NCBI GenBank assembly: GCA_001871115.1
Contig: MNUR01000046.1
Location: 13,299-77,298, forward strand
Direction: 5' to 3'
DNA: 64,000 bases
DNA from: Elusimicrobia bacterium CG1_02_56_21
GTDB taxonomy: Bacteria > Elusimicrobiota > Elusimicrobia > Elusimicrobiales > UBA9959
Below, one piece after another: positions 45,502 to 64,000 of the stretch (the stretch's first letter is position 1; every line of letters begins with the position of its first letter). The notes beneath the pieces are model-generated. The model did not search any database. It was not told the DNA's origin and worked only from the letters and a program-made list of their open reading frames with translations. Both the position numbers and the translations under genes were made by a program.

Positions 45502-45507
45502 CTGTAC

Positions 45508-48554: not shown

Positions 48555-48588
48555 AAAGAACTATTGAGCAGACCGCCCGGTTCCCCCA

Positions 48589-48614
48589 AAGCAAAACCGC
48601 CGGATCTCCCGGCG
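48589..48614 (-). terminator. GC-hairpin family copy H4
   Basis: CCGCCGG-ATCTC-CCGGCGG followed, in minus sense, by TTTTGCTTTGGGGG. Confidence 0.6.
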
Positions 48615-48709
48615 GCTTCGGAATACGGCCGCCGCCTTTGCCTGAACTTTCATCTATATTTGCCGGCATCCCGATCATGTTTATATCCGGAAGCCCCTGC
48701 CTGTTTACT

Positions 48710-49167: not shown

Positions 49168-49173
49168 ATTTTT

Positions 49174-49181
49174 ATTCTACA
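49174..49181 (-). promoter_or_regulatory. -10 TG-TAGAAT, 6 nt upstream of ATG 49167
   Basis: Minus-sense GGTTTTGTTTTGTAGAATAAAAATATG. Confidence 0.45.
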
Positions 49182-49209
49182 AAACAAAACCGCCGGGCTG
49201 CCCCGGCGG
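49181..49209 (-). terminator. GC-hairpin family copy H5
   Basis: CCGCCGGG-CTGC-CCCGGCGG plus TTTTGTTTTG in minus sense, 25 nt after the OPT stop. Confidence 0.75.
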
Positions 49210-49233
49210 TTTTAAGTGTCGTGTCCCCAGTGA

Positions 49234-51111: not shown

Positions 51112-51231
51112 GTCTCCTTCCGGCCTTTTAGCCGGAGTTATCCGAATTGTAAGAGTATTATCCCGGCGTCGCGTTCTTAAAAAAAGTCTTTCCGCCGTTC
51201 TTAGCATTAATCATACAAAAGAGGCCCGCCA

Positions 51232-51265
51232 CAAAACAAAACCGCCGGGCTGCCCCGGCGGTTTT
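51232..51265 (-). terminator. GC-hairpin family copy H6 (sequence identical to H5 over 35 nt)
   Basis: ACAAAACAAAACCGCCGGGCTGCCCCGGCGGTTTT, 22 nt after the stop of the 51287 gene. Confidence 0.75.
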
Positions 51266-51286: not shown

Positions 51287-53146
51287 CTACTGGAGGTTCA
51301 CGTGACTCTGGTTGATATAGCCCTCGCTCCAGTCCCCGCCGCTCATTGCGGACTTGCGGACCTTGAAATAACCGTTCTTCTCGCCTATTATCAGTACTTT
51401 CACACCGCGGTCCAGCTTGGTAATAGTGCTGGAGAAGATCCCGCTGGTGCCTTTCCTTACATGGGCGCCGTTACTTGACACGACCCCGACCTTATTGGGA
51501 TTCGTCCTGGAATACATCTGACGGGCATCTCCTACAAGCTTGCCCTTTTCTGAGAACGTCACATAAAGCGCGTCCGCGTCCGGGGCTACGACATCATAGA
51601 GCTTGCCGATATTAAGGTTCAGCACGGCGTTTGCCCTGCCTCCCACTCCGTCGGCACGCAGATCGGACACAAGGACTATCTCCCCGCGCTCGCTCTTGAC
51701 CACTATTGCGACGGTATCGGACGCCTGAAAACCGAAGTTCTTTACTTCGGCCCTCATCATGATATTTTCGCTGGCTTCGAACTGTCCGTTATTGTTCTCA
51801 TCGTAGAAAGTGACGCCTGCAACCTTCAGGACCGCGTTCTCCTGGTAGAACTTATCCGCGGCCGCAATACCGGACTGTTTACCGGCCTCGAAGGCGCCGG
51901 GATAGACCTGGGCCGTCATGTTCTGGTAGCCCTCGTTGTAGCCGCGTTTCGTCTGTTCGGCGCAACCGGCCGCAAAACCTTCATTCTGACCGGCGGCCCG
52001 ACCATTCCCCTGTCCCTGGGCTCTTTGATCGGCATATTCCCTGTTGCTGTATTCATTATAATACGCGCTGTAGGCCGAGTTATAGGCCGACGAATAAGCT
52101 TCCTGGTAGCCCTGCTCTTTTCCCTCGGCATAGCCGTTGCGGTAGCTGATAGCGTACTGCTCGTCGTATGCCCACCGGTACGCGGTATTGTATCTTTCAT
52201 TATAACCCTGCCGCTTGGCGTCATCATATGCCCGGCGGTAGCTATTGCGATAACCCTCTTTATAACCTTCGTCATAGGCGCGTTTTTCTTCCGGAGTCGC
52301 ATACCCGCCGCGGGCCATCTCTATAGGGAGATCCATACCGCGCGTAAGCAGACCGCTTTTCTCGAAGCCGGCCCTCCTGGCAGTGGATAAAGCGCTTTGG
52401 AGTTCGGCTTCGCGCTGACTGAAACCGGCCTGATAGCCGGCCTTTTGACCGTTCGCGGCCTCCGTGACCGACGCATCAGACTGCCCTTTCGCGTATCCTG
52501 AACTATAGGAAGCGGCATCCTGCAGCCCTAATTCTTTAGCCGAGGCAAAGGCAACATTGTAGCCGTCGGTGTATCCCGCGTCATAACAGCGGCGCTGGCC
52601 GGCCTGTGTACCGTTATTAATACCGGTGTTCTGGCCTTGGGTGCTTCCGTTCAGTATTCCAGCGGACTGATTAACACCCCAACCATCTCTTTTACCGGCA
52701 GCTCGGCCAGCTCGCTCACCTTCATTACTGCCGTTCCTGCGCCCGTCCCATTCTCCGGAATTGATACCATCCGAGTAGCCATTCCGCCTTCCTTCCCTGA
52801 CGCCTGCTTCGGAACCAGCCCTTATGCCGGCGTTACGAGCTTGAGTGGTATCTACAGGCTGAGGAGGCTGGGGAGGCTGGCTGCCGCCATTGTTGCCGGG
52901 CTGGCCGCCGTTATTGCCGCCGTGATTGTTGCCGGGCTGGCCGCCGCCGGGCTGCTGCCCATGCTGACCAGGCTGCCACCCTTGGGGCAGAGGTTTAGCT
53001 TGAAAATCCTTCCGCTCTAATCTGGTTTGCTCAATGGTTTCGCTAACATCCGACAGCTGCATAACCCCGTCGCTTGATGCGAATACCATGCCCGAAGCTA
53101 TCAAAAGAGAGGGAAACAACGTCGCCGCGCATAATGTTTTTTTCAT
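51287..53146 (-). CDS. Large secreted protein: low-complexity G/Q/N/P region, Tyr-periodic repeat region, C-terminal SH3b domain
   Basis: Start at 'MKKTLCAATLFPSLLIASGMVFA' (an alternative ATG is at 53152). 'AYDEGYKEGYRNSYRRAYDDAKRQGYNERYNTAYRWAYDEQYAISYRNGYAEG'. C-terminal 'GAHVRKGTSGIFSSTITKLDRGVKVLIIGEKNGYFKV'. Confidence 0.7.
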   Translation of the reverse strand: MKKTLCAATLFPSLLIASGMVFASSDGVMQLSDVSETIEQTRLERKDFQAKPLPQGWQPGQHGQQPGGGQPGNNHGGNNGGQPGNNGGSQPPQPPQPVDTTQARNAGIRAGSEAGVREGRRNGYSDGINSGEWDGRRNGSNEGERAGRAAGKRDGWGVNQSAGILNGSTQGQNTGINNGTQAGQRRCYDAGYTDGYNVAFASAKELGLQDAASYSSGYAKGQSDASVTEAANGQKAGYQAGFSQREAELQSALSTARRAGFEKSGLLTRGMDLPIEMARGGYATPEEKRAYDEGYKEGYRNSYRRAYDDAKRQGYNERYNTAYRWAYDEQYAISYRNGYAEGKEQGYQEAYSSAYNSAYSAYYNEYSNREYADQRAQGQGNGRAAGQNEGFAAGCAEQTKRGYNEGYQNMTAQVYPGAFEAGKQSGIAAADKFYQENAVLKVAGVTFYDENNNGQFEASENIMMRAEVKNFGFQASDTVAIVVKSERGEIVLVSDLRADGVGGRANAVLNLNIGKLYDVVAPDADALYVTFSEKGKLVGDARQMYSRTNPNKVGVVSSNGAHVRKGTSGIFSSTITKLDRGVKVLIIGEKNGYFKVRKSAMSGGDWSEGYINQSHVNLQ

Positions 53147-53290
53147 TAACATACCCCTGTGTCCCGGATTTCCGGAGAGTTGACTGGATAAGATATTGTA
53201 ACCTAAGCAGCCAGGTAGACATAGAGCAGAAGGGCCCAGTGCGCCGGAGAAAAACGGCGCCCGGGATATAGGCCCTTTGGCCCCACCCCC

Positions 53291-53320
53291 AAAAGCAAAA
53301 CCGCCGGAATTACCCGGCGG
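53291..53320 (-). terminator. GC-hairpin family copy H7
   Basis: CCGCCGG-AATTAC-CCGGCGG plus TTTTGCTTTTGGGGG in minus sense. Confidence 0.6.
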
Positions 53321-53413
53321 CTTAGCTCCTAAACGCCAAATCTCGAAACCTGCCCCTTTTCCCCGCGTATTCAACTGTATTCGCACCCAAAAAAACTCTC
53401 CCGGGACCCTTTC

Positions 53414-54034
53414 CTATTTTATCTTTCTGAATAATGTGTAAATATAAGGTCTCGGGTCGCCATTGGGATTTATAAACGTGTAGTCAAAATGCGAAATAAG
53501 TTCGAATGACGGTCCAAGTTTTTTGGACAGCTCCGCCACTGAATACCTGTGCAGGGGCAGCCCGGCGCATTTAGACGCGCCTGTCTTAGAGAATTCCAAG
53601 AATATCGCATAGCCACACGGCTTAAGGAAAGACCTTACATTTCTGAAATATCCGTTAATAGCGTCTTTATCGCGCAAAAAATGCAGGACTGCCCTGTCGA
53701 TCCAGATGTCCGCCTTGGGCAGAGTGCGCGGCAGCGGCCGGGAGATGTCCCGGCAAAGAAAGTCTATTTTTCCTTTTTTATCGTTAACCCTCTTTTTCAC
53801 GCGGCTTAAAGCCTCGGCGCTGATGTCGTTTACAGTTATTTCTGCGCATTTGAGGAGCAGTTCCTCTATCAGTACCGAGGTTCCTGCCCCGGGAATGAAC
53901 ACCCTGGCTTTCTTCAGCCCCGGGACCAGCTTCAACAATTTAAGCGTTTGAGAAGCGTTCTTTTCATACCAACCCAGATCCTGGTCTTCCGTTCCGGAAA
54001 ATATGGCATCCCAATGCTTGCAATTAGTTTTCAT
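53414..54034 (-). CDS. Class I SAM-dependent methyltransferase
   Basis: Start at ATG 54034 (SD AAGGA). Motif I 'VFIPGAGTSVLIEELL' and post-I 'VNDIS'. Confidence 0.7.
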   Translation of the reverse strand: MKTNCKHWDAIFSGTEDQDLGWYEKNASQTLKLLKLVPGLKKARVFIPGAGTSVLIEELLLKCAEITVNDISAEALSRVKKRVNDKKGKIDFLCRDISRPLPRTLPKADIWIDRAVLHFLRDKDAINGYFRNVRSFLKPCGYAIFLEFSKTGASKCAGLPLHRYSVAELSKKLGPSFELISHFDYTFINPNGDPRPYIYTLFRKIK

Positions 54035-54226
54035 GATTTTATCCTTAAACCGCAAAAAGTTCCGCCCTTTAACCCCGGCGGCTTCGCTTCCAAGCGCTAA
54101 TTCTCAGGACCCGCCCCTTCTCCCTTTCCCTTCCCCGTGAGAAAACCGGAAGCAAAAGGGGAAGGACAGTAAGCTTATAGCGGCCACCGCCGCCCATTTT
54201 TGGGCAAGAAGGCGCATTATTCCCAA

Positions 54227-54706
54227 CTACTCGCGAAAAACCGCCACGGCGCCGTAACCGCGGGCGCCCGGCGGGGGAAGAGGGGCAGCAGATTTTCTTC
54301 GCGCCGGGCTACGTTCCGCATAGATGTCGCAGGCGGAAATTATATAGACTGGCCGCAGAAAAAGCATAATGACGCCGACCAAAACCACCAGTTGAACTCC
54401 GGCCCAGAAATAGAATTTAAAGATACTGCGCTCTACGGGCGCCTTGAAGTCAACAAGGTCCGGGAAATAAACGAAAAACAATATCGTGCCGATATAGATA
54501 GCGATGCCTGTTATCCAGCACAAGCAGAAATAGCCCCTGCGCAGTATAGCCACAGCGGCGAACTTTTTGCGCACCAGGTCCACCGAACGCTTGCCCGCCC
54601 AGCGCCAGACCTTCTCGGGGATCCGGCCCAGCATCTGCACCCACAGGTTATAGCCGGCGGCTATGCAGGCCGCTGCAGCAGGGTGAAAGTAATTATTTCT
54701 TTTCAA
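54227..54706 (-). CDS. Membrane protein, function unknown (start uncertain)
   Basis: 159 aa from a TTG start, with 3 TM helices. It overlaps a 52-codon upstream ORF in another frame. Confidence 0.4.
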   Translation of the reverse strand: MKRNNYFHPAAAACIAAGYNLWVQMLGRIPEKVWRWAGKRSVDLVRKKFAAVAILRRGYFCLCWITGIAIYIGTILFFVYFPDLVDFKAPVERSIFKFYFWAGVQLVVLVGVIMLFLRPVYIISACDIYAERSPARRKSAAPLPPPGARGYGAVAVFRE

Positions 54707-55017
54707 GGAAGAATAATTTCAGGCTAAACCTGGTCCGCTTCCAGAAACCGGATAGCCCGGTACCCGGGGATGGGCGCAAACCGGAGGCCTCCGTCAGGAC
54801 CAAAACCTCGTTATTTACCGCCTTCATTTCGCTGAGATAGTTATTTCCCATGGGACTCCGGAATCAATATTAAATAATATATTCCCACGAAAATGCGATA
54901 GCCCCCTACTAAAGGCGGTATCACTCTGGCTCCGCCCTGACATTAAGCTGGAACGGCCGGGAGCGGAAGGCACACCATAAACCACAAGAGACACCCGCTG
55001 CCTTTACCTCTCTGATT

Positions 55018-55045
55018 AAACAAAACCGCCGTGCCTCCCCGGCGG
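55018..55045 (-). terminator. GC-hairpin family copy H8
   Basis: CCGCCG-TGCCTCCC-CGGCGG plus TTTTGTTTAATC in minus sense, 35 nt after the REC gene stop. Confidence 0.65.
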
Positions 55046-55079
55046 TTCATGACAAGCGCGGCAATTTCCAAATTAACGG

Positions 55080-55481
55080 TCAATGTGCCTCGTGCTTATG
55101 GGTCTTTTCCCCTTTAGCGGGCAGCGCGTGATGGATAGCCTTGAGCACTTCTTTTGTAGAAAGGACTTTTGACAGCGTTCCCCGGCAATTGGGAAGCTTG
55201 GAGAAACCCCGCACCAGCATTGGGTCGGCGCCTATGGCGGACAGCACTATAAACGGTATCCTGGAGGTTTTATGCATATTCTTTATGGCAACGGCCACGT
55301 CGTGCCCGGTCATGTCCCCTAGATTATAATCCAGAAGCACGAGGTCGGCCAGATAAGACAAAGCTATCCTAACCCCCGCCGCCCCGCTACCGGCAATTTG
55401 CGTCTTATACCCCGCGGTCTTAAGGCAATCCTCAAGCATGCAGGAAAGTTCTATATTATCTTCAACAATAAGTATTTTCAT
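55080..55481 (-). CDS. Single-domain response regulator (receiver only)
   Basis: Start at 'MKILIVEDNIEL'. 'DLVLLDYNLGDMTG'. Confidence 0.8.
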   Translation of the reverse strand: MKILIVEDNIELSCMLEDCLKTAGYKTQIAGSGAAGVRIALSYLADLVLLDYNLGDMTGHDVAVAIKNMHKTSRIPFIVLSAIGADPMLVRGFSKLPNCRGTLSKVLSTKEVLKAIHHALPAKGEKTHKHEAH

Positions 55482-55530
55482 ACAGTTTCGCCTTAAACGC
55501 AGCAACAGAAATCTGAATCGAATACCGTAT

Positions 55531-55546
55531 TAAGTATTGTGTCACC
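55531..55546 (-). repeat. 16-nt junction motif, copy A (minus-sense GGTGACACAATACTTA)
   Basis: Abuts the stop codon of the truncated scramblase fragment. Other copies are at 60742-60757 and 63759-63774. Confidence 0.7.
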
Positions 55547-55726
55547 TTATTTACCCTTGAGGAACAAGCGCGCCAGGGTGGAGCCTTCTTCGGCGGCCCA
55601 GTACAGCTGCCGCTCCGAGGTATCCAGTACCGCATATTTGTTCTTCGTTTCGAAGCCGGTCAGGATCTCCCCCCATTCCTTCTTCTGCCGCACTATAACC
55701 GCTTCCGCCGTTTTCAGTTTTTCCAT
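55547..55726 (-). pseudogene. N-terminal fragment (59 aa) of a second scramblase-family gene
   Basis: My translation is MEKLKTAEAVIVRQKKEWGEILTGFETKNKYAVLDTSERQLYWAAEEGSTLARLFLKGK*. It aligns colinearly with residues 2-58 of 24508..25098 and then stops. Confidence 0.75.
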
Positions 55727-55855
55727 ATTTTATCCGACCCGGTGGATACAGGTGACGCTGCTTACCATCTTCCTATCTTGAGAACAGTACTGAATGAAGT
55801 GATACTTAGGAAGTCAGGAAACAGCGTCCCCCATGTCTCCCTTCTAACTGTCTCC

Positions 55856-56140
55856 CTATTTGTGGGATACGGAAGAAGTATGCGCGCGGCGCAGAAGCAC
55901 TTCATTAATGAACGTCTGGTAGCCGATACCGCGATGTTTGGCCTGTGCATGCGCCCATGCCAACGCTACGGGATGGATACGGATATGAACATCCCGGTAT
56001 TTAGCGGCGCCTTTTGGCGGGCGGCCCCTGGCGGGGCGTTTCACATGCAGGGTCCTCTCGATAGCTTTTTTAAAAGCCAGCGTTTCCTGCGGCGTGACCC
56101 GGCGCGCTTTTGAGAAATAAAATTCCTTTACTTTCTTCAT
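55856..56140 (-). CDS. brnA: BrnA-type antitoxin (RHH/CopG-like C-terminus)
   Basis: 94 aa. 'VHIRIHPVALAWAHAQAKHRGIGYQTFINEVLL' matches the BrnA pattern. Lies downstream of brnT. Confidence 0.7.
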   Translation of the reverse strand: MKKVKEFYFSKARRVTPQETLAFKKAIERTLHVKRPARGRPPKGAAKYRDVHIRIHPVALAWAHAQAKHRGIGYQTFINEVLLRRAHTSSVSHK

Positions 56141-56420
56141 ACTTCTTCCTTTCGCGACGATTCGCGCGCCGCGCGCTGACGATCCTTATATTTCCCTTCG
56201 GCGGACGTATCGTAAACACAATGACCACAACTCTTTCCCCAGAGTCACCGATCAGCCATTGCCTGTGCTCTGCAGCGGAATGCCTCTCATCGTCCATTAT
56301 CAAAGCGTAAGGGTCGTCAAAAGCAAATACCGCCATTTCGAAACTGATACCGTGCTTAAGGGGGTTTCGTTCCGCTTTTTCGTCATCCCATTCGAACTTC
56401 GTATTTATAGTGTACACCAC
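56070..56420 (-). CDS. brnT: BrnT-type toxin (DUF497 ribonuclease)
   Basis: 116 aa (GTG start). 'FEWDDEKAERNPLKHGISFEMAVFAFDDP...IRIVSARRANRRERKKYEE'. Confidence 0.8.
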   Translation of the reverse strand: MVYTINTKFEWDDEKAERNPLKHGISFEMAVFAFDDPYALIMDDERHSAAEHRQWLIGDSGERVVVIVFTIRPPKGNIRIVSARRANRRERKKYEESKGILFLKSAPGHAAGNAGF

Positions 56421-56472
56421 AAATCAGGCATAGTCAAGGCCGCCTTTAACCCCCCTATTTTCCCCCAAAGAA

Positions 56473-56498
56473 GGTCAAAAGCAAAGACCTGCCCCCCC
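56473..56498. repeat. 24-nt motif GGTCAAAAGCAAAGACCTGCCCCC, copy a
   Basis: Inverted-repeat core AGGTC-N9-GACCT followed by a C-run. Lies about 55 nt upstream of brnT. Confidence 0.7.
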
Positions 56499-56504
56499 TC
56501 CTTC

Positions 56505-56789
56505 CTACTTCTTTTCCCCTATAGGGAGATTAAATGCTTCCGATAATAGACGTTTCCCTACAGCTGGCCGGCGAGGTTTCCATAGCTTATGGTCAACCTC
56601 TCTCTTAGTGTGGTATAAGTGATGATTGCCCGTCAATATCATCAAGCTCCGGAGTTGTTTTAATGGAGCTTCGCCATGCTGCTCTTTTATCTCTTCCAGA
56701 GTGTTATCGGCAGTTACCGGCCATTGACGCCCGAGATATTGTCCCTTGAACATGGCTATCAGTGCGTCATACACTTCATCATCACTCAT
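56505..56789 (-). CDS. Small hypothetical protein
   Basis: Start at 'MSDDEVYDALIAMFKG' (SD GGTGGAG). The track's longer start reads through repeat copy b. Confidence 0.45.
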   Translation of the reverse strand: MSDDEVYDALIAMFKGQYLGRQWPVTADNTLEEIKEQHGEAPLKQLRSLMILTGNHHLYHTKREVDHKLWKPRRPAVGKRLLSEAFNLPIGEKK

Positions 56790-56824
56790 ACAAAATCCAC
56801 TCCACCTTTTCCTCGGACTTGATA

Positions 56825-56848
56825 GGTCAAAAGTAAAGACCTGCCCCC
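56825..56848. repeat. 24-nt motif GGTCAAAAGTAAAGACCTGCCCCC, copy b
   Basis: About 36 nt upstream of ATG 56789 and just downstream of the GNAT gene stop (56861). Confidence 0.7.
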
Positions 56849-56860
56849 ATCCCCGCCGCA

Positions 56861-57487
56861 CTATCCCCTAGGCGCTCTTTCATCCAGGTGGGACGCCTCA
56901 CCGAACATTTTATAGAACGCTTCTCGCCTGTCCCTCGGCAGTATCTTTATTAGTTTCACAAGTGCTCCCCAGTTTTCGGTCATCTCGAAACCGGAGATAT
57001 CAAAACCTTGTTTGAGTTTAAGTATTAGGATTCTTCGGTTCGTTGGCTTATGATGACTTGAGATACGCTCATACCCAAGCTCTCTCAAATAGCGCATGAA
57101 AGTTTCAGAGAATGCAGTGAACAGCCCCCGATTCTGGTATTCCGGGAGGATTCCGCTATTCCACATATAAAATGTCTGATGATCTTCCGCTTCGCCCATA
57201 TGCCAGCCAATAGGTTGCCCTTTCGGATTTAAAAACAAAAACCACTCATGATGAATAACCGAGTAGAGTTTTCGCAGCGGCGCCATCTGCTGCCGGCGCT
57301 CTGGGGAAACCCTGAAACATAAGCAGTCATCCCCGGGCGGGAAGACTTTATTGTACGCCTTGCCGAGAAAGTCATAAACCTCTTTCGCGTCAGAAGGCCT
57401 TATGCAAAACCCCTCTTTTGTCTTCAAAGGAAAATATTTAGTCCTGATCCCGCTAATATTTAGTTTCTTGGCAATTGTTTTGTTCAT
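56861..57487 (-). CDS. GNAT-like N-acetyltransferase
   Basis: Start at 'MNKTIAKKLN' (SD GGAGA). 'PEYQNRGLFTAFSETFMRYLRELGYERI'. The track's longer start runs into the MITE. Confidence 0.6.
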   Translation of the reverse strand: MNKTIAKKLNISGIRTKYFPLKTKEGFCIRPSDAKEVYDFLGKAYNKVFPPGDDCLCFRVSPERRQQMAPLRKLYSVIHHEWFLFLNPKGQPIGWHMGEAEDHQTFYMWNSGILPEYQNRGLFTAFSETFMRYLRELGYERISSHHKPTNRRILILKLKQGFDISGFEMTENWGALVKLIKILPRDRREAFYKMFGEASHLDERAPRG

Positions 57488-57510
57488 AATTCTCCATTTA
57501 CTAATCCCTA

Positions 57511-57674
57511 GGAGCCTGTCCGACATAAGGCTTTCATGGCGAAATTGACGATTTAAAGCCGAGCCGAAGCGCCGCGAAACGAGCACCCTCGACGGAGGTT
57601 GTAAGTTGAGCGGCGCAAAGGCGCAGGCAAAAAGCGGCAATTGCAGACGAAATTGCTTATGTCGGACAGGCTCC
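57511..57674 (-). mobile_element. MITE-like element, copy 3 (inverted relative to copies 1 and 2, more diverged)
   Basis: GGAGCCTGTCCGACATAAGG...CTTATGTCGGACAGGCTCC. The internal sequence aligns to the reverse complement of copy 1. Confidence 0.85.
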
Positions 57675-57753
57675 AAGCATACGGGGTATCGGGAGTAGCC
57701 CGACTTATCGAGTTATCATACAGCGTCCTCTATCCCTCCTGGCACCCTTTTCC

Positions 57754-58506
57754 CTATTCCTCTACAACTACGATATTCCACATCCCAGGATTAGGGTTCT
57801 TAATAAGAACCGCGCTTTGTCCGCGCCAGAGAATTGTGGATTTTATATTTGCCAGCTTCTTGAAGCGCTCAAGGCTTTTACATTTAATTACTACAGCGGC
57901 GACCTTGGTTGACCGGCCTGATTCTATGAAGAGCCGTATCCCTCCTAAACTAACGTCTTTCCCATTAAGACTCTTGCCAAAGACTTTTTCAAGTTTCGGC
58001 CCGTCAGAACCTCTCACGATAAGCTCTAAACCGGCGATAGTATGCGCCGTGTTCGGGTGAGGCGGAGGCGTCACGCGTTTTTTCGTGGGATGGGGCTCGT
58101 ATTCGGTGAACCACAGGTAGATGTTCTTAAATTTGGGGCTTAAAAATGTCAGAAAGTTCCAGCCGGGAAGAGCGCTTTTGCTGTCTTTCTTCCAGGCGTA
58201 GTTCTTATGGATGTACTTGGCCTTTATGTCCTTCCGGGCTTTGAGGGCCCCGAAGTACCGCTTAAGCGGCCCTGTGTACCGCAGTGAAACGCCGGGCTTA
58301 TCGATGGGTTCCCCGCCCTTTCCTACCCGGACAAATTCCAGGTAAACGCGCCCGGAACCGTGCTTGAACATTATGAAGCGGCAGAATTGCTTTCCCGGAT
58401 GCTCGACCTCGTTTTCTGACAAAACGAAACCGGATTTCCCCAGGGCCTTGAAAAACCCGTGCCCGGCATCTTCCGTATAGCTATGATCGAAGTTTATGGA
58501 TTTCAT
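57754..58506 (-). CDS. Glyoxalase-like-domain (VOC superfamily) protein
   Basis: 250 aa. 'INFDHSYTEDAGHGFFKALGKSGF...VYLEFVRV' and 'HPNTAHTIAGLELIV' resemble the PF13468-type layout. Confidence 0.45.
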   Translation of the reverse strand: MKSINFDHSYTEDAGHGFFKALGKSGFVLSENEVEHPGKQFCRFIMFKHGSGRVYLEFVRVGKGGEPIDKPGVSLRYTGPLKRYFGALKARKDIKAKYIHKNYAWKKDSKSALPGWNFLTFLSPKFKNIYLWFTEYEPHPTKKRVTPPPHPNTAHTIAGLELIVRGSDGPKLEKVFGKSLNGKDVSLGGIRLFIESGRSTKVAAVVIKCKSLERFKKLANIKSTILWRGQSAVLIKNPNPGMWNIVVVEE

Positions 58507-58555
58507 AATTTCAGTTCGTATAAAGACGCCCTGCGGCCTTTTCCACTGCGGCCAT

Positions 58556-59242
58556 TCAGGCCATTCTGGCTACAGTAACGTACTTCGGGGTAAAACCGCG
58601 CGCACGGGCGAGTTTCTGATTGGCCGGCATGAAGGACCTGGTCTTGAATTCTACCGGCAGCCTCGATTTTTTCCACAGGCCCCAGAAGTGCTCGCTCTCT
58701 GCCACGATTTCGCTTTTAGATAAGTCCGGGGCGGCCCAACCCCACAATATCCAGTCGCAGTTCTCGCCAAGATAGTTCTTGCGCTTTACTATAGCTGAAA
58801 GGGTAACAGGCTTCCCGTCCTTGAAAAGGGACGCATGCCTGGCTTTTTTCATAAGCCCGACCGCGATGCGGAGCTCTTTTTTGAACGCAGGCCCGAGCTT
58901 CTTATACTTCTTTACGATCTCATTGGAACCTTTAAAGAAAAGTTTCAGCATTTTAACCTGCGGCAGACTGCCGGGGGCCAAGGTTTCCGGCAGCGCCACT
59001 TTCTTAACCTTTATCTGCGATGGCTTAGCGGAATAGATAATCGCCACATTATGTTTTGGCTGCAGTGATTTGCTCACATGCCACTCGTTCTTTATCGGCT
59101 CGTCGAATGTAAAGACCGCGTGGCTAGCCCCGGCAGGCCAATCCTTGTGCATACGGCTGAGTACCTTATTGTCCAGGTCTTTGAAATTTTTAAGCTTGTA
59201 CTGCTCGAAAGTCCCTATCCGCTTCAGTTTTGTTGGTTCCAT
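58556..59242 (-). CDS. Member 2 of the ~230-aa paralog family
   Basis: 228 aa. 'ASLFKDGKPVTLSAIV...WILWGW...LSKSEIV...NQKLARARGFTPKYVTVARM'. Confidence 0.6.
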   Translation of the reverse strand: MEPTKLKRIGTFEQYKLKNFKDLDNKVLSRMHKDWPAGASHAVFTFDEPIKNEWHVSKSLQPKHNVAIIYSAKPSQIKVKKVALPETLAPGSLPQVKMLKLFFKGSNEIVKKYKKLGPAFKKELRIAVGLMKKARHASLFKDGKPVTLSAIVKRKNYLGENCDWILWGWAAPDLSKSEIVAESEHFWGLWKKSRLPVEFKTRSFMPANQKLARARGFTPKYVTVARMA

Positions 59243-59275
59243 TTATACGCCCCCTATGATGACCAATATATTCAT

Positions 59276-59284
59276 ATAGTAGCA
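59276..59284 (-). promoter_or_regulatory. Extended -10 TGCTACTAT
   Basis: Minus-sense GGTTTTGTTTGCTACTATATG, about 34 nt upstream of ATG 59242. Confidence 0.4.
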
Positions 59285-59310
59285 AACAAAACCGCCGGGC
59301 TTCCCCGGCC
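59284..59310 (-). terminator. GC-hairpin family copy H9
   Basis: CCGCCGGG-CTTC-CCCGGCC plus TTTTGTTTG in minus sense. Confidence 0.65.
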
Positions 59311-59355
59311 GTCTCAAATGACCTATAAATAATTACAATTTAGTATTCAACGTCC

Positions 59356-59922
59356 CTATCTCCCTGCTTTCTCTGGCTCCATCCAGTTAACCGTGCGGTA
59401 ACCGGATATATCCAGTTCGCCTTTTAGCAGCACATGGGGGGCAAAACCCCATATCAAGGGAATTGTCTTATCGGCGAAACATTCTCTATAGTAGGCCAGG
59501 TTGCGTTCCGGCATGCCTGACAGTTCTAGCACACGTTCTTCCCTGACAGGTTCAAAATCCGACTCCGGAAAAATACGGGAGCTCCGGTTTTTACGAGTAT
59601 TTTTATAAATAATAGACGGGAACGCAAGAACATCCGCGACAGGCACCTCGAACCACTCGCGCGAGTACTTGTGATGTTCAAAGCCGATAGCTGAAAGCGT
59701 TTCGCAGATCAAAAAAGGATGCATCAAGGAAAAATGGATCACATCGTTCCATAAAGCGTTCAGTATAGGGACCTTCGCATCCAACAACCATTCCCGGCCC
59801 TCATATTTCTTGACAGCCCCTGCATAGACCTCTGGGAGCCGCCCCCTAAGCGTATTAAGCGGATAAAGCCTGTCCCCGGCAAAATCAGGCCTTTTAGCGT
59901 GATAAACATATGTCTTCGGCAT
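59356..59922 (-). CDS. Conserved-looking hypothetical protein (188 aa)
   Basis: 'YHAKRPDFAGDRLYPLNTLRGRLPEVYAGAVKKYEGREWLL...PILNALWNDVIHFSLMHP'. I cannot name a family. Confidence 0.5.
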   Translation of the reverse strand: MPKTYVYHAKRPDFAGDRLYPLNTLRGRLPEVYAGAVKKYEGREWLLDAKVPILNALWNDVIHFSLMHPFLICETLSAIGFEHHKYSREWFEVPVADVLAFPSIIYKNTRKNRSSRIFPESDFEPVREERVLELSGMPERNLAYYRECFADKTIPLIWGFAPHVLLKGELDISGYRTVNWMEPEKAGR

Positions 59923-59929
59923 CCCCCTT

Positions 59930-59938
59930 ATTCTACCA
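59930..59938 (-). promoter_or_regulatory. Extended -10 TGGTAGAAT, 7 nt upstream of ATG 59922
   Basis: Minus-sense GGTTTTGTTTTGGTAGAATAAGGGGGATG. Confidence 0.45.
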
Positions 59939-59966
59939 AAACAAAACCGGCGGGATTCCCCGGCGG
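59938..59966 (-). terminator. GC-hairpin family copy H10
   Basis: CCGGCGGG-ATTC-CCCGGCGG plus TTTTGTTTTGG in minus sense, 21 nt after the 59987 gene stop. Confidence 0.7.
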
Positions 59967-59986
59967 CTCGGCTCTGTTCTGGGAAG

Positions 59987-60694
59987 TTACGCGCCTATCC
60001 GTTCAAACAGCACCCGGTCAGTCTGGAAATCCATATCAGCAAAGAACCGGTGGTAGGCGTCCATCTTGGCTGAGTTGAACAGGGCCACCCGGTGCTTGCC
60101 TGAATTTTTCAGCCATACAGCTTCCTGATATTTGATGCTCCGCCGTTCTGCCGGTGTAAGCCCTTCAAGCTTGGGATGCCAAGACATGTAATTGTCCGTA
60201 AAGCCGTACATGTTCTTCCGCGTGAAATATGCACCATGCGTAAGGAACTTGCCTTTTTTGAAAAAGAGCAGCGCTTTTGCCTTTGGCAGGAACTTCTTCA
60301 CGTAAGGCTCAAGGTCATGCCTTGCGCTGTAACCGGCTTTTTTGCCTTCCTGTTTTATAAGTTTCCTATGTTCCAGGCGGGTATAGCGGACAAGCTCGGC
60401 CAGGTTTTTAGGCAGGCGAGAGGTGATGCCTGCCGCCGCCGGTTCAGGCGGAAGTTTCACCCCGGACTCCGGTGAAAAGCAGTAGAACATCTGATGGTAT
60501 TTAGGGGACACCTTGAAGCGCAGCGGCTTCAGGGACTTCAGCGGAACCTGTTTAAAAATAAACCCGCAGTAAGGCTTATCTTCCGGCAGGTCCAATGAGT
60601 CCAGAAGCGTCTGGTCTATAGCAGAACGGTCCCCGACCTTGTAGGTATTCCCCCTCGGATCTTTCCTGTAAAGACTAATTTTTATTTTTCCCAT
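59987..60694 (-). CDS. Member 3 of the ~230-aa paralog family
   Basis: 235 aa. 'RLPKNLAELVRYTRLEHRKLIKQEGKKAG...ALLFFKKGKFLTHGAYF...LTPAERRS...YHRFFADMDFQTDRVLFERI'. Confidence 0.6.
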   Translation of the reverse strand: MGKIKISLYRKDPRGNTYKVGDRSAIDQTLLDSLDLPEDKPYCGFIFKQVPLKSLKPLRFKVSPKYHQMFYCFSPESGVKLPPEPAAAGITSRLPKNLAELVRYTRLEHRKLIKQEGKKAGYSARHDLEPYVKKFLPKAKALLFFKKGKFLTHGAYFTRKNMYGFTDNYMSWHPKLEGLTPAERRSIKYQEAVWLKNSGKHRVALFNSAKMDAYHRFFADMDFQTDRVLFERIGA

Positions 60695-60741
60695 ATCCTC
60701 ATTCTCCTAAATAACCCGGAACTCCCGGCCAGCGCCGCAAT

Positions 60742-60757
60742 TAAGTATTGTGTCCCC
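60742..60757 (-). repeat. 16-nt junction motif, copy B (minus-sense GGGGACACAATACTTA)
   Basis: Lies 8 nt after the stop of 60766..61452 and about 48 nt before ATG 60694. Confidence 0.65.
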
Positions 60758-60765
60758 GGATCCCT

Positions 60766-61452
60766 TCACATGCGCACTATGCGGATACGGTCAACTTTGA
60801 AGCCGAGGCCCGCAAAGAACCTGACCGACGCCTTATCGAAATGATCCAGGCCCACTACCAGCCGGCCCTTGGAGGCCGAGTTCATCCAGGAAGAAGCCTG
60901 ATGCCAAACGCTGCGCACTTCAGCGGGGGAAAGACGCACGAAAGGACAATGCCAGGCGACGACATCGACCACCTCGCCTTTCTCCTTGTACTTAAACAAT
61001 GAATAGAGCGCAACCGGCTTGCCCTTCTTGAACATTATCAGGGACCTTGTCTTTGGCAGGTACTTCGTTTCATATTTCTTTGCTTCGGTCAGGAAGAAGC
61101 CTCCCGCTTTAGCACCCCACTCCTTCAGGTAAGCCCGGTGCGCCAGCCGGTTAACCCGCTTTAATTCCGCGAAATTCCTGGGCGGGCGGGACTCTATCCC
61201 CGCGGCGGGAGCCGCTTTGCCGGAGTACCCGAGTTTTTTCCCGGTAGCGCTGGCGCCCAGGCGCAGCAGGCAGCCGGCAGGTATCTTTGCCGGGGGAAAC
61301 TTGGCGAGCTTCAGCGTCTTCTTGAACTCAAAGCGGACGCTGGGCACCTCCTCCGACCAGCCATAGGCCGTCAGTAAAGCCTTATCTATGACCCGTGGAA
61401 CCGCTATCTTATGTATCTTCCCCATATTCTTAAACGCGCTGGTTTTTTTCAT
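60766..61452 (-). CDS. Member 4 of the ~230-aa paralog family
   Basis: 228 aa. 'RPPRNFAELKRVNRLAHRAYLKEWGAKAG...SLIMFKKGKPVALYSLF...LSPAEVRS...VRFFAGLGFKVDRIRIVRM'. Confidence 0.6.
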   Translation of the reverse strand: MKKTSAFKNMGKIHKIAVPRVIDKALLTAYGWSEEVPSVRFEFKKTLKLAKFPPAKIPAGCLLRLGASATGKKLGYSGKAAPAAGIESRPPRNFAELKRVNRLAHRAYLKEWGAKAGGFFLTEAKKYETKYLPKTRSLIMFKKGKPVALYSLFKYKEKGEVVDVVAWHCPFVRLSPAEVRSVWHQASSWMNSASKGRLVVGLDHFDKASVRFFAGLGFKVDRIRIVRM

Positions 61453-61480
61453 ACTGTTCCCCTTAAACTCGCCTTCTGCT

Positions 61481-62320
61481 CTATTTAGCCGCCCAGCCCA
61501 GGCCGGCGGTTTTCAGCATGCGCAGTTGCTTCGGCGTATCCCGCAGCATCCTGCCGGCGCGGTAATGCAGACCGAATATGATCTGCGGCGCATTGAAATT
61601 GCCGCGGGCCTTTACATCCTTTAAACATCTCTCGGCAAAGCCAGCATTATGCGCCACCCTGCAGGAGTCGGCCAATATTTTAAGGTCTTTTGCTTTTATC
61701 TCCTCCGTAACGCCCTCATACCGCTTACGGAAAGCGGCCAGTAGTTCCTTGTCCGATGCGTCCCGGTAAACTTCGCTATGCGCCAGCAGGGCGGCCGGCA
61801 GCTTCTTGCGCCGGGGAGGCTTGATCTTGGGATAGCCGACGGCCAGAGAGACCGCCGGAACTACTCCTTTAGGGAGTCTGCACATGCGCCGTATTTGCGC
61901 CATGCTGTCGAAGACCGGTCCTATATAGACCGACCCCAGCCCAAGCGCGTCCGCCGCCACGCACATATTCTGCGCGCAGATAATGGTATCCTGAAAAGCT
62001 ATCCAGAAGGGCCGCAGGGACCGGTCGGCGGAATAAGGCGCGTTTTCCATGCGTGCCCACCGCTTATGCCGGTGCAGGTCAACGCAGAACACAAAATGCA
62101 GCGGGACTTTAGCCAAAAAAGGCTGCCAGCAGAACTTTGCCAGCTTCTTTATCGCAGCCGGCTTCTCTATCTTTATTATCGAATACGGCTGGAGGTTGCC
62201 GCCTGTAGGAGCATGGATCCCCGCCTCAACAAGTTGCGCTACCACAGCAGGCGGAACCTTTTTGTCTTTAAAAACCCTGCAACTGGCCCGGTCCGTCAAA
62301 AGCTTCAAAGTAGCGTTCAT
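61481..62320 (-). CDS. Nitroreductase family protein
   Basis: 279 aa. 'RASCRVFKDKKVPPAVVAQLVEAGIHAPTGGNLQPYSII'. Confidence 0.8.
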   Translation of the reverse strand: MNATLKLLTDRASCRVFKDKKVPPAVVAQLVEAGIHAPTGGNLQPYSIIKIEKPAAIKKLAKFCWQPFLAKVPLHFVFCVDLHRHKRWARMENAPYSADRSLRPFWIAFQDTIICAQNMCVAADALGLGSVYIGPVFDSMAQIRRMCRLPKGVVPAVSLAVGYPKIKPPRRKKLPAALLAHSEVYRDASDKELLAAFRKRYEGVTEEIKAKDLKILADSCRVAHNAGFAERCLKDVKARGNFNAPQIIFGLHYRAGRMLRDTPKQLRMLKTAGLGWAAK

Positions 62321-62344
62321 GCTTTCTCCCTTAATGCTCCCTCA

Positions 62345-62353
62345 ATTCTACCA
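62345..62353 (-). promoter_or_regulatory. Extended -10 TGGTAGAAT
   Basis: Minus-sense GGTTCTTTTTGGTAGAATTGAGGGAG, 25 nt upstream of ATG 62320 (SD AAGGGAGA). Confidence 0.45.
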
Positions 62354-62380
62354 AAAAGAACCGCCGGGCTTCCCCGGCGG
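62353..62380 (-). terminator. GC-hairpin family copy H11
   Basis: CCGCCGGG-CTTC-CCCGGCGG plus TTCTTTTTGG in minus sense. Confidence 0.65.
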
Positions 62381-62446
62381 TGTTAATGACCGTCAACAAT
62401 CAGTCATTTTGCGATCAGCTACCTATATCTCCTCGCATCTGCCCTC

Positions 62447-63091
62447 TTACCGCGCGGCACCGGAGGCTTCGGCCCAGATTCCCTGTATGCCTTCTGGGAA
62501 ATTGCGGCGCAATCCCTCCATCTCGCCCGGCGAGACATGGCAATCTAGGACCTTGATGATCCCCCGCGTGACGCGCATGGGCTCCATACCTTTAGGCAGC
62601 TCCACAGCCACCCGGTCGAGGAACTCTTCAAGAGTGTGCATTCTCTCCGGCTTGTTCTTCGGCGTCCAGCCCGAATAGTACATCCCCATCATCAGCACCG
62701 GCAGCTGCGCCGCGAACTCCGCCGCCTCGTTGACCGGCAGCCTGTCCCGCATCGCGTGCAGCACGGCCCTCATGGCCCTGTATGCGTCGTTGAGGTTATT
62801 AAGCTGCAGCTCCGTTTCAACGCCTTTAAGCCATTCCCTGGTCTTAGCCATGGCATGGTCGTACATATGGGCGTTCGAGGACTCTGTAATGGTGTTGGGC
62901 CACTCCCTCGTTATCCGCTCAGCCTCCTGCCAGTCACCCTGTGACGTACCCGGCTTGGCGCCCCTTTTCATATAAATATCCCGCGCTACCTGCCTGGTGG
63001 CCTCATCAAGGTCCCCGCTGCGCAGATAGTCTGCGTAAGCCTGCGTGTAACAATGCCTGGCCGTGGTACTTATCTTCATATTTTTATTCAT
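62447..63091 (-). CDS. DUF2934-like N-terminus plus DUF2267 domain protein
   Basis: Start at 'MNKNMKIS' (SD GGGGGG). 'RDIYMKRGAKPGTSQGDWQEAE' and 'LPVNEAAEFAAQLPVLMMGMYYSGWTPKNKPERMHTLEEFLDRVA'. Confidence 0.7.
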   Translation of the reverse strand: MNKNMKISTTARHCYTQAYADYLRSGDLDEATRQVARDIYMKRGAKPGTSQGDWQEAERITREWPNTITESSNAHMYDHAMAKTREWLKGVETELQLNNLNDAYRAMRAVLHAMRDRLPVNEAAEFAAQLPVLMMGMYYSGWTPKNKPERMHTLEEFLDRVAVELPKGMEPMRVTRGIIKVLDCHVSPGEMEGLRRNFPEGIQGIWAEASGAAR

Positions 63092-63187
63092 TTCCCCCCC
63101 TTTTTTAATACAGCGGGGCCCGCGCCTTAACAAAGCGGTTCCGCTGCCTAACTGCGTATCCGGAATATCGCCGCCACCCACACGGTC

Positions 63188-63195
63188 ATATTACA
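63188..63195 (-). promoter_or_regulatory. -10 TG-TAATAT after a T-tract
   Basis: Minus-sense AATTTTGTAATATGACC, about 97 nt upstream of ATG 63091. Confidence 0.4.
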
Positions 63196-63219
63196 AAATT
63201 ACCAGAAAAATGCAACAGG

Positions 63220-63243
63220 CAGAGACTTATCCAGAGACTTATC
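63220..63243. repeat. Perfect tandem duplication of a 12-mer (CAGAGACTTATC x2)
   Basis: Seen directly. It sits 27 nt upstream (minus sense) of the 63188-63193 -10 element. Confidence 0.85.
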
Positions 63244-63691
63244 AAACGCAAGATGAGCCTGAAATCCGGCTCCTGTTGCAAAACAGGGGTTTCCATCCAT
63301 ATTTTCTAACTATGACAGTAAATATGGACGATTCATTAGTAAGACAGTGGCGCAGTTGCGGAAGTTCCTGCGGGCGGACAAATACGCCTGGATAGAGATG
63401 ACCGTGCGCCGGTTCGATTACTTTTCGCTATATCCCCGGTGCGTAAATGCAGCATGCTGGCGACTGGTTTTTCAAGGCCGCAAATAAACAGACTGCTCCA
63501 GCAAAAACTGCTCAACGGCAAATTCCCATGGCCAGAAATTATTCCAATGTTCGCTCCAGAACACGAACCCCGGCTCCGCGCCGGCCATATCTCTGCAAAG
63601 TATCCTGCGGACAACCCGCGAACCGAGTTTAACCTCGAGCGCTTCTCCGGAAAGTTCGAATATAAAAGGGAATATGTTTCAGCCTCCAGAA

Positions 63692-63711
63692 CTGCCGGGC
63701 TTCCCCGGCGG
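63692..63711 (-). repeat. GC-hairpin family copy H12 (no T-tract)
   Basis: CTGCCGGG-CTTC-CCCGGCGG. The minus-sense downstream sequence GTTCTGGAGG lacks a U-run. Confidence 0.5.
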
Positions 63712-63758
63712 CTCCGCTTCCCGCTAAATCACAAGACCTGACCATCTCCCCGAGCAGA

Positions 63759-63774
63759 TAAGTTATGTGTCACC
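63759..63774 (-). repeat. 16-nt junction motif, copy C (minus-sense GGTGACACATAACTTA)
   Basis: Abuts the stop codon of the truncated ORF6N fragment. Confidence 0.65.
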
Positions 63775-63855
63775 TTAACCCCCGAACATAACCCTGTGGC
63801 CACGTATAAGAAATATCTTCTTTTCGATCATCTCTAGTGAAATCAGGTCCTTCAT
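63775..63855 (-). pseudogene. 26-aa N-terminal remnant of an ORF6N/KilA-N-type DNA-binding (antirepressor-like) gene
   Basis: SD GGGGGAGA then ATG. MKDLISLEMIEKKIFLIRGHRVMFGG*. 'IExKIxLIRGxxVM' is the characteristic ORF6N start, and the domain is cut off after it. Confidence 0.5.
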
Positions 63856-63886
63856 ATCTCCCCCTTTGGCTCGTTCACCTGCATAT

Positions 63887-63895
63887 ATCCTAGCA
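63887..63895 (-). promoter_or_regulatory. Extended -10 TGCTAGGAT
   Basis: Minus-sense CGTCTGCTAGGATATATG, about 32 nt upstream of ATG 63855. Confidence 0.35.
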
Positions 63896-63971
63896 GACGA
63901 ACCCGAGAAGGGATTGTCGGGCAAAAAACGCTAAAAAGTACTGGGATGGCGAGCGGGGTGTGGGGCGTAAA

Positions 63972-63996
63972 GGTCAACAGTAAAGACCTGACCCCC
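63972..63996. repeat. 24-nt motif GGTCAACAGTAAAGACCTGACCCCC, copy c
   Basis: Third copy of the AGGTC-N9-GACCT plus C-run motif, at the window edge. Confidence 0.65.
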
Positions 63997-64000
63997 ATAA

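Follow-up and report, generated by a model that had tools for sequence, protein, structure and literature searches.

A probable hypervariable cassette array with junction repeats between rpsJ and rplC in groundwater Elusimicrobia

What kind of DNA lies at 53.4-64 kb of a 64,000-nt stretch of the genome of Elusimicrobia bacterium CG1_02_56_21 (contig MNUR01000046.1; the whole stretch is called the window here), where does it begin and end, and how was it put together? A preliminary description made from the sequence had proposed an accessory island of unidirectional single-gene modules, gene remnants, a toxin-antitoxin pair, and repeats, with a border at 53,387. On balance, we think that the stretch is probably one end, the one nearest rpsJ, of a hypervariable cassette array specific to this lineage, located between the ribosomal protein genes rpsJ and rplC and recombining at repeats in the junctions between cassettes. 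Literature searches yielded no description of such arrays in Elusimicrobia or next to rpsJ, and nothing relevant on islands or integrons in that group or on hotspots at rpsJ.

The position of the locus was established with independent assemblies of the same population, retrieved by exact-protein look-up and derived from groundwater metagenomes; comparison loci and contigs are labeled with L-numbers (L095, L108, L144, and so on). One overlapping contig of this population carries rpoC, rpsL, rpsG, fusA, tuf, and rpsJ outside the window, past its end, and these genes have the orientation of the island. The rpsJ stop codon lies 68 nt past base 64000 (window-equivalent 64068) and is followed by the gene's own terminator hairpin; an S10 protein identical to the encoded one occurs in "Elusimicrobia bacterium CG_4_10_14_0_2_um_filter_56_8". 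Thus the island does reach the window end, as described, but its true border is the rpsJ terminator just past 64,000, and what lies beyond 64 kb is rpsJ with its terminator, not an integrase. At the other side, rplC occupies 16236-17021 of the window and is followed by the remaining genes of the S10/spc operon. Some 47 kb of miscellaneous, mostly minus-strand genes between rpsJ and rplC therefore splits a normally contiguous junction.

The adjacency of rpsJ and rplC is normally among the most conserved in bacteria. In a scan of S10 matches in a genome collection, used only as a cross-phylum control with close relatives not among the matches listed, rplC lay at most ~600 nt (median 15 nt) from rpsJ in 75 of 80 genomes, five distant Elusimicrobia included. 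The rpsJ-rplC separation may also occur in other lineages, or extra S10 copies may be present there: in five Burkholderiales loci (L026, L029, L030, L032, and L054; Variovorax, Massilia, and Zemynaea) the S10 match is followed by no rplC or by one 2.4-8 kb away. Relatives with 78-88% identical L3 have no rpsJ within 10 kb of rplC, and rplC is not reached in any of the arrays downstream of rpsJ, which are up to 13.5 kb long; the split of the S10 operon is therefore old and clade-wide in the groundwater Elusimicrobia relatives. These L3 relatives have the same small glyoxalase gene ahead of rplC as the window, with varying genes further upstream. The variable region is thus flanked by core genes on both sides, rpsJ on one and rplC with its glyoxalase neighbor on the other, and the conserved glyoxalase gene marks a second, more stable edge of the interval. 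This small glyoxalase/VOC gene (17393-17770 in the window; also in L100, L102, and L104) is directly upstream of rplC across the clade. In one relative (L125, Ga0156396_1118), fusA, rpsG, and rpsL are not found ahead of tuf-rpsJ, which is either a different str operon context or a second tuf copy.

Behind the fixed point at rpsJ the DNA is hypervariable. Relatives with 91-99% identical S10 share no genes with the window or with each other in the 10 kb behind rpsJ, and L108 and L109 have identical S10 proteins and completely different cassettes. In every pair compared, DNA homology extends for ~414 nt from the start of rpsJ and breaks off where the terminator T-tract ends. A metagenome scan with the terminator added 33 more contigs, giving 40 occurrences with 29 distinct downstream sequences (at 90% identity), at least 10 of them from one sample. 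The array open reading frames (ORFs) are mostly co-directional with rpsJ (126 vs 35, with a crude gene caller), and the cassettes, single genes for the most part and small blocks in a few cases, run in the same direction as the str and S10 operons. The first cassette in relatives is often defense-like, with OLD/Gabija-type ATPases, KAP NTPase, NACHT/STAND, DUF4062, Schlafen, SIR2, Fic, and Panacea proteins, so that defense genes appear enriched in these arrays. The accessory island is thereby upheld as a non-syntenic region; conserved synteny and a core-like composition, which the preliminary description had named as evidence against it, were both looked for and neither holds.

In about half of the variants the rpsJ terminator is immediately followed by a GC-rich structured palindrome of ~135 nt, which is intact in 14 related loci (L107 748-908, L122 4125-4286, L126 8485-8646, and 11 others). 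It has a 17-20-bp outer stem and inner hairpins, with compensatory changes in 17 of 33 pairs, and matches no Rfam family; cassette divergence begins right after its 3' arm. An extra copy at L125 4756-4915 suggests that it is a dispersed repeat.

These observations bear on whether there is an island at all. An ordinary vertically inherited neighborhood, or an assembly chimera, could be argued from the identity of the region in at least eight assemblies of the population, a GC shift of just 4 points, and the break of two public assemblies at a miniature inverted-repeat transposable element (MITE) within the region. However, relatives share none of its genes at the same position, two contigs span the MITE (L095 and L096; the metagenome-assembled genome contig DCOM01000029.1 is among the spanning contigs), and a 70.9-kb contig covers 57.4 kb through rplC and beyond, the spanning contigs being 99.8-100% identical to the window. 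A chimera at the MITE was rejected because of these contigs, and the explanation as a whole is scarcely conceivable.

The hairpins and the two short repeat families of the preliminary description turned out to be parts of one composite element of ~90-100 nt, of which 83 distinct copies were aligned. Both families are real and far above chance (0 expected), but they are box subtypes of this junction element and not separate families. Each junction reads, in order, a box starting GGGGAC or GGGGTC, GCGRAG, a hairpin, TTTTGTTTTG, and often GTAGAAT, with the next ATG 6-10 nt on. Type 1 is the commonest box (GGGGACGCTG..., 39 of the 83 copies), type 2 ("repeat A", GGGGTCAGGTCTTTACTTTTGACC) has 13 copies, "repeat B" (GGGGACACAATACTTAA) is a type 3 box, and TAGAAT is present in 45 copies. 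The hairpin CCGCCGGGGAAGCCCGGCGG occurs 10 times in the window where 0.03 are expected, always on the minus strand and always within 41-64 kb, and with its flanks it recurs many times in the arrays of relatives. Junction repeats as a whole number 10 forward and 0 reverse in 41-64 kb of the window, with none in 1-41 kb, and 62 forward and 3 reverse (95% one way) in 162 kb of relatives' arrays. The 30 kb adjoining rplC in relatives contain 3, and 1.2 Mb of other genomes contain 2. The GC hairpin followed by a T-run looks like an intrinsic terminator, and the hairpin shows compensatory changes (e.g., CTGCCGGG...CCCGGCAG). Rfam gave nothing at gathering score in the window or in four arrays, and relaxed thresholds gave chance-level matches only.

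Since the repeat-bearing array extends down to ~41 kb, its border is not at 53,387. The protein encoded at 51287-53386 has a homolog (61% identical) 4 kb from rpsJ in L143, which fits a variable segment of differing length ahead of this gene. The junction hairpins at 51231-51265 and 49179-49213, after the 51287-53386 gene and an OPT transporter gene, are perfectly identical over 35 nt, a similarity that points to recent copying or gene conversion between junctions.

Segments common to several arrays lie at differing distances from rpsJ, and their identity starts and stops inside junctions. A 1.2-kb unit (97.6% identical) is common to L121, at 5.4 kb, and L122, at 2.3 kb, and runs from a hairpin to ...GGTAGAAT; a third copy is in L119, and the encoded nuclease-like protein is of the T5orf172/GIY-YIG plus zinc-finger kind. 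L108 and L121 have a metallophosphatase cassette in common, at 7.6 and 11.2 kb, respectively, and the comparison of L109 with L119 also has its breakpoint at a junction. L126 and L133 have their first 237 nt in common, differ by a replaced middle, and reconverge at a hairpin; L109, L116, L123, and L124 reconverge, from a junction, on a common block at 7.4, 10.4, 5.6, and 7.1 kb. Finally, L144 contains homologs of six genes of the window (BrnT, ORF6N, GNAT, and the p228b, o250, and o188 genes described below), 60-76% identical and in another order, together with eight junctions. The nuclease-like cassette (L121 5680-6582, L119 3346-4245) is the clearest one common to arrays; it resembles free-standing homing endonucleases and is a candidate driver of local recombination. 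Tandems of 3-4 junction repeats in which the subtypes alternate, separated by tiny ORFs at most, were seen at L108 7650-8100 and L109 3480-4100, the former with four junctions in 450 nt and no ORF between; they resemble ORF-less cassettes or clusters of bacterial interspersed mosaic elements (BIMEs).

This last resemblance leads to a rather unlikely explanation, namely that the repeats are autonomous selfish elements like MITEs or the repetitive extragenic palindromes (REPs) that make up BIMEs, settled as passengers between the genes of an ordinary hotspot of horizontal transfer, with the cassettes exchanged through homologous recombination in conserved flanks (rpsJ and distal genes). REP/BIME sequences are short GC-rich palindromes at gene 3' ends, arranged as subtypes in tandem mosaics, and can be terminators or recombination hot spots. 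The junction repeats are likewise short, GC-rich, extragenic palindromes with several box subtypes in tandem mosaics, and a MITE, an IS30-like element, and another palindromic repeat are also present in the region; moreover, hotspots between core genes are known that bear no marks of mobile elements (PMC10250203). They differ from REPs in that the copies are clustered in one region and point in one direction, GTAG lies 10 nt 3' of the palindrome and does not abut it, and no REP-associated tyrosine transposase (RAYT) gene was seen. At least five independent array comparisons in which identity starts or stops inside a junction argue against mere passengers, as do the near-absence of the repeats from other sampled DNA of the clade and their 95% uniform orientation, both unusual for dispersed selfish repeats.

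In L108, a ~117-nt duplication of the 3' end of rpsJ, terminator included, brackets a 1.55-kb AT-rich segment that contains a Fic gene. The second 117-nt copy, downstream of the Fic gene (L108 2900-3200; also in L114 and L115), carries an allele that resembles L109 and L119; together these point to a single-crossover insertion at the rpsJ 3' end. Only L108 shows such a direct-repeat border. Its Campbell-type duplication could be taken for the work of a dedicated site-specific system, in which the junctions would correspond to attC, the site behind the rpsJ terminator to attI, and an enzyme encoded elsewhere would cut out and insert the cassettes. Divergence that starts at one fixed point and an integron-like build (a unidirectional array with one repeat per cassette, ORF-less and paralogous cassettes, and toxin-antitoxin genes) fit such a system as well. 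We nevertheless regard it as decidedly unlikely, since no recombinase was seen in the window or in ~180 kb of arrays, the core conserved among the junctions has compensatory changes and the form of a textbook terminator hairpin, and no circular intermediates are known.

Accretion at a conserved gene is familiar from staphylococcal cassette chromosome mec (SCCmec), where tandem elements pile up at the 3' end of rlmH, each insertion duplicates the gene end, and the elements carry or depend on Ccr serine recombinases. The L108 Fic insert likewise duplicates the end of a conserved gene beside which DNA accumulates, although no Ccr-type serine recombinase was found here and only one such duplication was seen.

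The junctions and related features of the window are, from 64 kb downwards:

63971-63995, minus strand: type-2 box, "repeat A" (GGGGTCAGGTCTTTACTGTTGACCT), the first array sequence past the rpsJ terminator T-tract
63948-63968, minus strand: remnant of the 3' arm of the ~135-nt palindrome, from comparison with related loci
63887-63921, minus strand: CCCGACA...TCGGG hairpin plus TAGGAT, putatively promoter-like, recurring upstream of relatives' cassettes
63757-63774, minus strand: type-3 box, "repeat B" (GGTGACACATAACTTATC)
63680-63752, minus strand: degenerate junction with a type-2-like box (63733-63743) and GC hairpin (63692-63711), no T-run
62338-62418, minus strand: junction with an ATGAC...GTCAT box, hairpin (62361-62380), T-run, and TAGAAT (62345-62350); 80% identical over 85 nt to an L105 junction
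60704-60757, minus strand: weak junction with a type-3 box (60741-60757), short hairpin (60716-60728), and GGAGAAT
59923-59986, minus strand: junction with a hairpin (59947-59966), T-run, and TAGAAT (59930-59935), ATG 7 nt on
59243-59355, minus strand: junction with a type-1 box (59348-59357), hairpin (59292-59311), and T-run
57678-57753, minus strand: type-1 box remnant (57721-57730), interrupted by the MITE
56824-56848, minus strand: type-2 box copy
56472-56496, minus strand: type-2 box copy, upstream of brnT
55727-55855, minus strand: type-1 box (55822-55831) and inverted copy (55751-55760), forming a long imperfect palindrome
55529-55546, minus strand: type-3 box, directly behind the truncated scramblase gene
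55014-55051, minus strand: GC hairpin and T-run after the receiver gene
53289-53326, minus strand: GC hairpin and T-run after the methyltransferase gene
41047-51261, minus strand: array continuation, with hairpins at 51242-51261, 49190-49209, 42429-42448, and 41063-41082
49174-49184, 48546-48557, 44665-44676, and 41047-41057, minus strand: array continuation, T-run with TAGAAT

Copies in the window are more decayed than those of relatives. The hairpin and -10 modules that had been described between most genes are present, but their frequency was overstated: a GC hairpin with a T-run occurs in ~6 of 15 junctions and TAGAAT in only two within 53.4-64 kb. A further recurring motif, the hairpin (C)CGACA-N-TGTCGG followed by TAnnAT, is found in the window at 63887-63921 and in L109, L121, L122, L126, and L144; it often lies between a junction T-run and the next cassette and may serve as a promoter or operator.

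The genes, remnants, and MITE between 53.4 and 64 kb are as follows:

63775-63855, minus strand: ORF6N gene remnant of 26 codons, cut off by a type-3 box, from homology
63092-63679 (~0.6 kb), either strand: no supported gene, ORFs without Pfam, NCBIfam, or array homolog; probably decayed cassette DNA
62447-63091, minus strand: DUF2934/DUF2267 protein gene, from domain match
61481-62320, minus strand: nitroreductase-family gene, from domain match
60766-61452, minus strand: p228b, predicted GNAT-fold paralog, from homology and fold
59987-60694, minus strand: p235, second paralog, from homology
59356-59922, minus strand: o188 cassette, 188 aa, of unknown function, with junctions on both flanks
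58556-59242, minus strand: p228a, third paralog, from homology
57754-58506, minus strand: o250, 250-aa protein with a predicted two-domain VOC fold, from model; no Pfam family
57508-57677, no strand assigned: MITE with 22-nt terminal inverted repeats, non-coding, 3 copies in the window
56861-57486, minus strand: GNAT acetyltransferase gene, from domain match
56505-56789, minus strand: 94-aa ORF of unknown function
56070-56420, minus strand: BrnT toxin (Pfam E=1e-24)
55856-56140, minus strand: BrnA-like antitoxin (E=3e-5, under the Pfam cut-off)
55547-55726, minus strand: scramblase N-terminal remnant, 59 aa, profile positions 16-71 of 221
55080-55481, minus strand: stand-alone receiver domain, from domain match
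54227-54706, minus strand: 159-aa hydrophobic (membrane) ORF, a doubtful gene call, with the opposite strand called in another annotation
53414-54055, minus strand: S-adenosylmethionine (SAM)-dependent methyltransferase, from domain match

All ORFs supported by Pfam, homology, or fold are on the minus strand, as the preliminary description had stated for everything from 53.4 kb on. Two small plus-strand ORFs that overlap minus-strand ORFs in one public annotation are ambiguous; plus-strand ORFs at 63063-63395 and 63439-63741, without Pfam, NCBIfam, or array homolog, were rejected. The methyltransferase, receiver, BrnT/BrnA, and nitroreductase assignments were likewise confirmed by domain matches, with BrnA under the Pfam cut-off. 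The resemblance of the enzyme set to a detoxification collection, suggested in the preliminary description, is a conjecture drawn from the names of the domains. The brnT and brnA genes are adjacent, as expected of a type II toxin-antitoxin system, and the BrnT pair also occurs in L144. Among the window cassettes no recognizable defense genes were found, the only matches being BrnT/BrnA and the generic methyltransferase. In part of the population the GNAT gene carries an IS30-like insertion at 57453/57454, a polymorphism; at the start of contig L089 (1-125), from one assembly of this population, the C-terminal part of an IS30-like transposase runs into the GNAT gene at a point 33 nt past the ATG of that gene.

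Several of the less obvious gene calls also stood. The three-member paralog family is genuine (p228a, p228b, and p235 are 22-36% identical to one another) and has only 42 homologs in 5.8 billion proteins, all named ones from Elusimicrobia. No sequence-level match to GNATs was found, but a model of the p228 family (predicted local distance difference test, pLDDT, 86.5) matched VipF, MshD, and other GNATs with a Foldseek probability of 1.0, at template modeling (TM) scores of only 0.4-0.5; the paralogs are thus predicted to have a GNAT fold, with acetyltransferase activity putative. The VOC-like gene, o250, has no Pfam match, yet its model (pLDDT 95.5) shows paired beta-alpha-beta-beta-beta modules and matches 4-hydroxyphenylpyruvate dioxygenase (HPPD), catechol dioxygenase, and glyoxalase at TM 0.54-0.64, placing it by predicted structure in the VOC superfamily. 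Sequence-profile searches of the PDB with the o250 and p228 families gave nothing useful, and NCBIfam profiles did not match the ORFs of unknown function. Homologs of o188 occur in different neighborhoods, in L144 (62%) and, after a junction, in L121 (53%).

The truncated genes are real and were matched to complete copies: an intact ORF6N gene, which comes first behind rpsJ in L113, has an N-terminus 85% identical to the ORF6N remnant, and the scramblase remnant is 73% nucleotide-identical to a full-length gene at 24508-25098, of which it is an old, diverged copy. Both remnants end at a type-3 box. The described MITE, which marks the break point of the two public assemblies, has two other copies in the window (17861-18029 and 23482-23650; 86-94% identical), in opposite orientation and in the rplC-proximal part of the interval. 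The lower GC content suspected by eye was confirmed in 1-kb sliding windows (0.515 inside vs 0.553 outside, Mann-Whitney p=8e-4), and GC at third codon positions (GC3) is 0.59 in the island vs 0.64 in other genes and 0.685 in ribosomal genes. The shift is patchy: the lowest 1-kb window, at 57-58 kb, has 0.467, 56.5-58 kb and 59.4-59.9 kb are low, and 61-63 kb is typical with 0.57. The composition thus differs from the core modestly and patchily, but significantly.

The lower GC, the toxin-antitoxin pair, and the gene remnants, together with the duplicated rpsJ 3' end in L108 of the kind that integrative elements make, might suggest a single conventional element such as a prophage, integrative and conjugative element (ICE), or island whose integrase lies outside the window. 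As the preliminary description had noted, no integrase or tRNA is present in the window: a tRNA scan found none, no window ORF tested had an integrase domain, and a crude motif scan for tyrosine and serine recombinases was negative across the window and ~180 kb of arrays. The region is not a prophage or ICE because rpsJ sits where the integrase would be expected and the window ORFs tested include no phage or conjugation genes. The content is also a mosaic of cassettes found separately elsewhere, viral contigs have no match to the junction hairpin or type-1 box, and plasmids have none to the junction element. Such an element is accordingly very improbable.

A classical integron, or a CALIN (attC sites clustered in the absence of an integrase), is extremely improbable, even though unidirectional single-gene modules, repeats between genes, and toxin-antitoxin, GNAT, and VOC content recall one. 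The one-directional, strain-variable array is present, but intI and attC are not: there is no integrase domain, rpsJ is located where intI would be, neither strand of 41-64 kb has complementary RYYYAAC...GTTRRRY pairs 50-157 nt apart, and the junctions do not have the form of long imperfect palindromes.

Nevertheless, by analogy the architecture is closest to a sedentary chromosomal integron, and the genomic logic to the core defense hotspots of Pseudomonas aeruginosa. In sedentary chromosomal integrons (e.g., the superintegron of Vibrio cholerae, whose attC repeats are the VCRs), an array-specific repeat of ~100 nt follows each cassette. Their arrays are long, one-directional, and mostly single-gene, contain ORF-less and paralogous cassettes, toxin-antitoxin pairs, GNAT and VOC proteins, and unknowns, and differ between close strains. 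The rpsJ array shares the unidirectional single-gene cassettes, the single repeat family, the toxin-antitoxin genes, the paralogs, the GNAT/VOC content, and the strain variability. It differs in lacking IntI, attC cores, and the attC-type long imperfect palindrome, and in being anchored at the terminator of a ribosomal protein gene; moreover, its repeats look like a terminator plus -10 box, so that the cassettes probably bring their own start signals. The P. aeruginosa hotspots cDHS1 and cDHS2 have variable size and content between invariant core flanks and no obvious mobile element, defense genes are frequent in them, and exchange through the conserved flanks has been proposed (PMC10250203). 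Here, too, a variable region lies between core genes, and the relatives' arrays contain OLD/Gabija-like ATPases, KAP, STAND, SIR2, and Fic proteins; unlike cDHS1 and cDHS2, internal junction repeats mark the exchange points, the site is within the S10 operon, and the window cassettes are not recognizable defense genes. A further parallel is HVR2 of SAR11, a hypervariable region of ~50 genes between the 23S and 5S rRNA genes, conserved in position across its clade and enriched in paralogs, methyltransferases, and hypothetical proteins (PMC3448164). Both are clade-conserved hypervariable regions that split a universally conserved operon of the translation apparatus, an rRNA operon in SAR11 and a ribosomal protein operon here. 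To our knowledge, no cassette junction repeats have been reported for SAR11 HVR2.

How might the rpsJ array be built? We propose that new DNA enters at the rpsJ terminator end and that cassettes are gained, lost, and swapped by recombination within the conserved ~35-40-nt junction core. Homology- or break-repair-driven exchange would be the most likely route, perhaps assisted by selfish nucleases such as the nuclease-like cassettes or by a site-specific enzyme, and imprecise events would leave truncated genes. Recombination at junctions would account for the mosaic arrays, for junction tandems that lack ORFs, for genes truncated at a box, and for the patchiness in GC content. Each junction may end transcription of the upstream cassette and start that of the next, producing near-leaderless messages insulated from the strongly expressed ribosomal operon, and the co-orientation of the cassettes may avoid conflict with the heavily transcribed ribosomal operons.

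Several points weigh against a cassette array that recombines at its junction repeats. No recombinase or other enzyme could be linked to the repeats, and a breakpoint at a junction would be expected whether recombination is homologous or site-specific and is therefore no guide to the choice between the two. The repeats may be no more than selfish elements between genes; the non-array DNA of the clade that was sampled amounts to ~85 kb (0-3 copies). A generic sigma-70 promoter scan was at chance (8 found vs 8.7 expected). Relatives were seen over 2-13 kb only, with crude gene calls, and in the window's own population the island is fixed, at least eight assemblies carrying it at 99.8-100% identity. 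Finally, the single-gene modules of the preliminary description hold for the most part, but p228b and p235 are also adjacent in L146, where junction repeats are absent, as expected of a conserved block and not of loose cassettes. A bolder and unlikely reading is that the repeats are the true recombination sites of an undescribed, non-integron cassette-capture system anchored at the rpsJ terminator, which would insert promoter-equipped single-gene cassettes, defense genes included, by means of an enzyme encoded elsewhere or borne on a cassette (e.g., GIY-YIG/T5orf172).

Hotspots of accessory and defense genes between core genes are common, and how they are built is mostly unknown. The array behind rpsJ is unusually readable, with a fixed entry point at the rpsJ terminator, repeat-marked exchange points, and dozens of natural variants in single groundwater samples, so that the mechanism of its assembly is open to direct test although the phylum is uncultured. 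New cassettes could be harvested from metagenomes with the rpsJ terminator and the junction repeat as sequence handles, and the two also explain why assemblies of these genomes break at this point. The locus also indicates that the rpsJ-rplC junction can be permanently broken and serve as a landing pad. If the cassette-capture reading is true, the system would sit behind a locus that ranks among the cell's most conserved and most strongly expressed.

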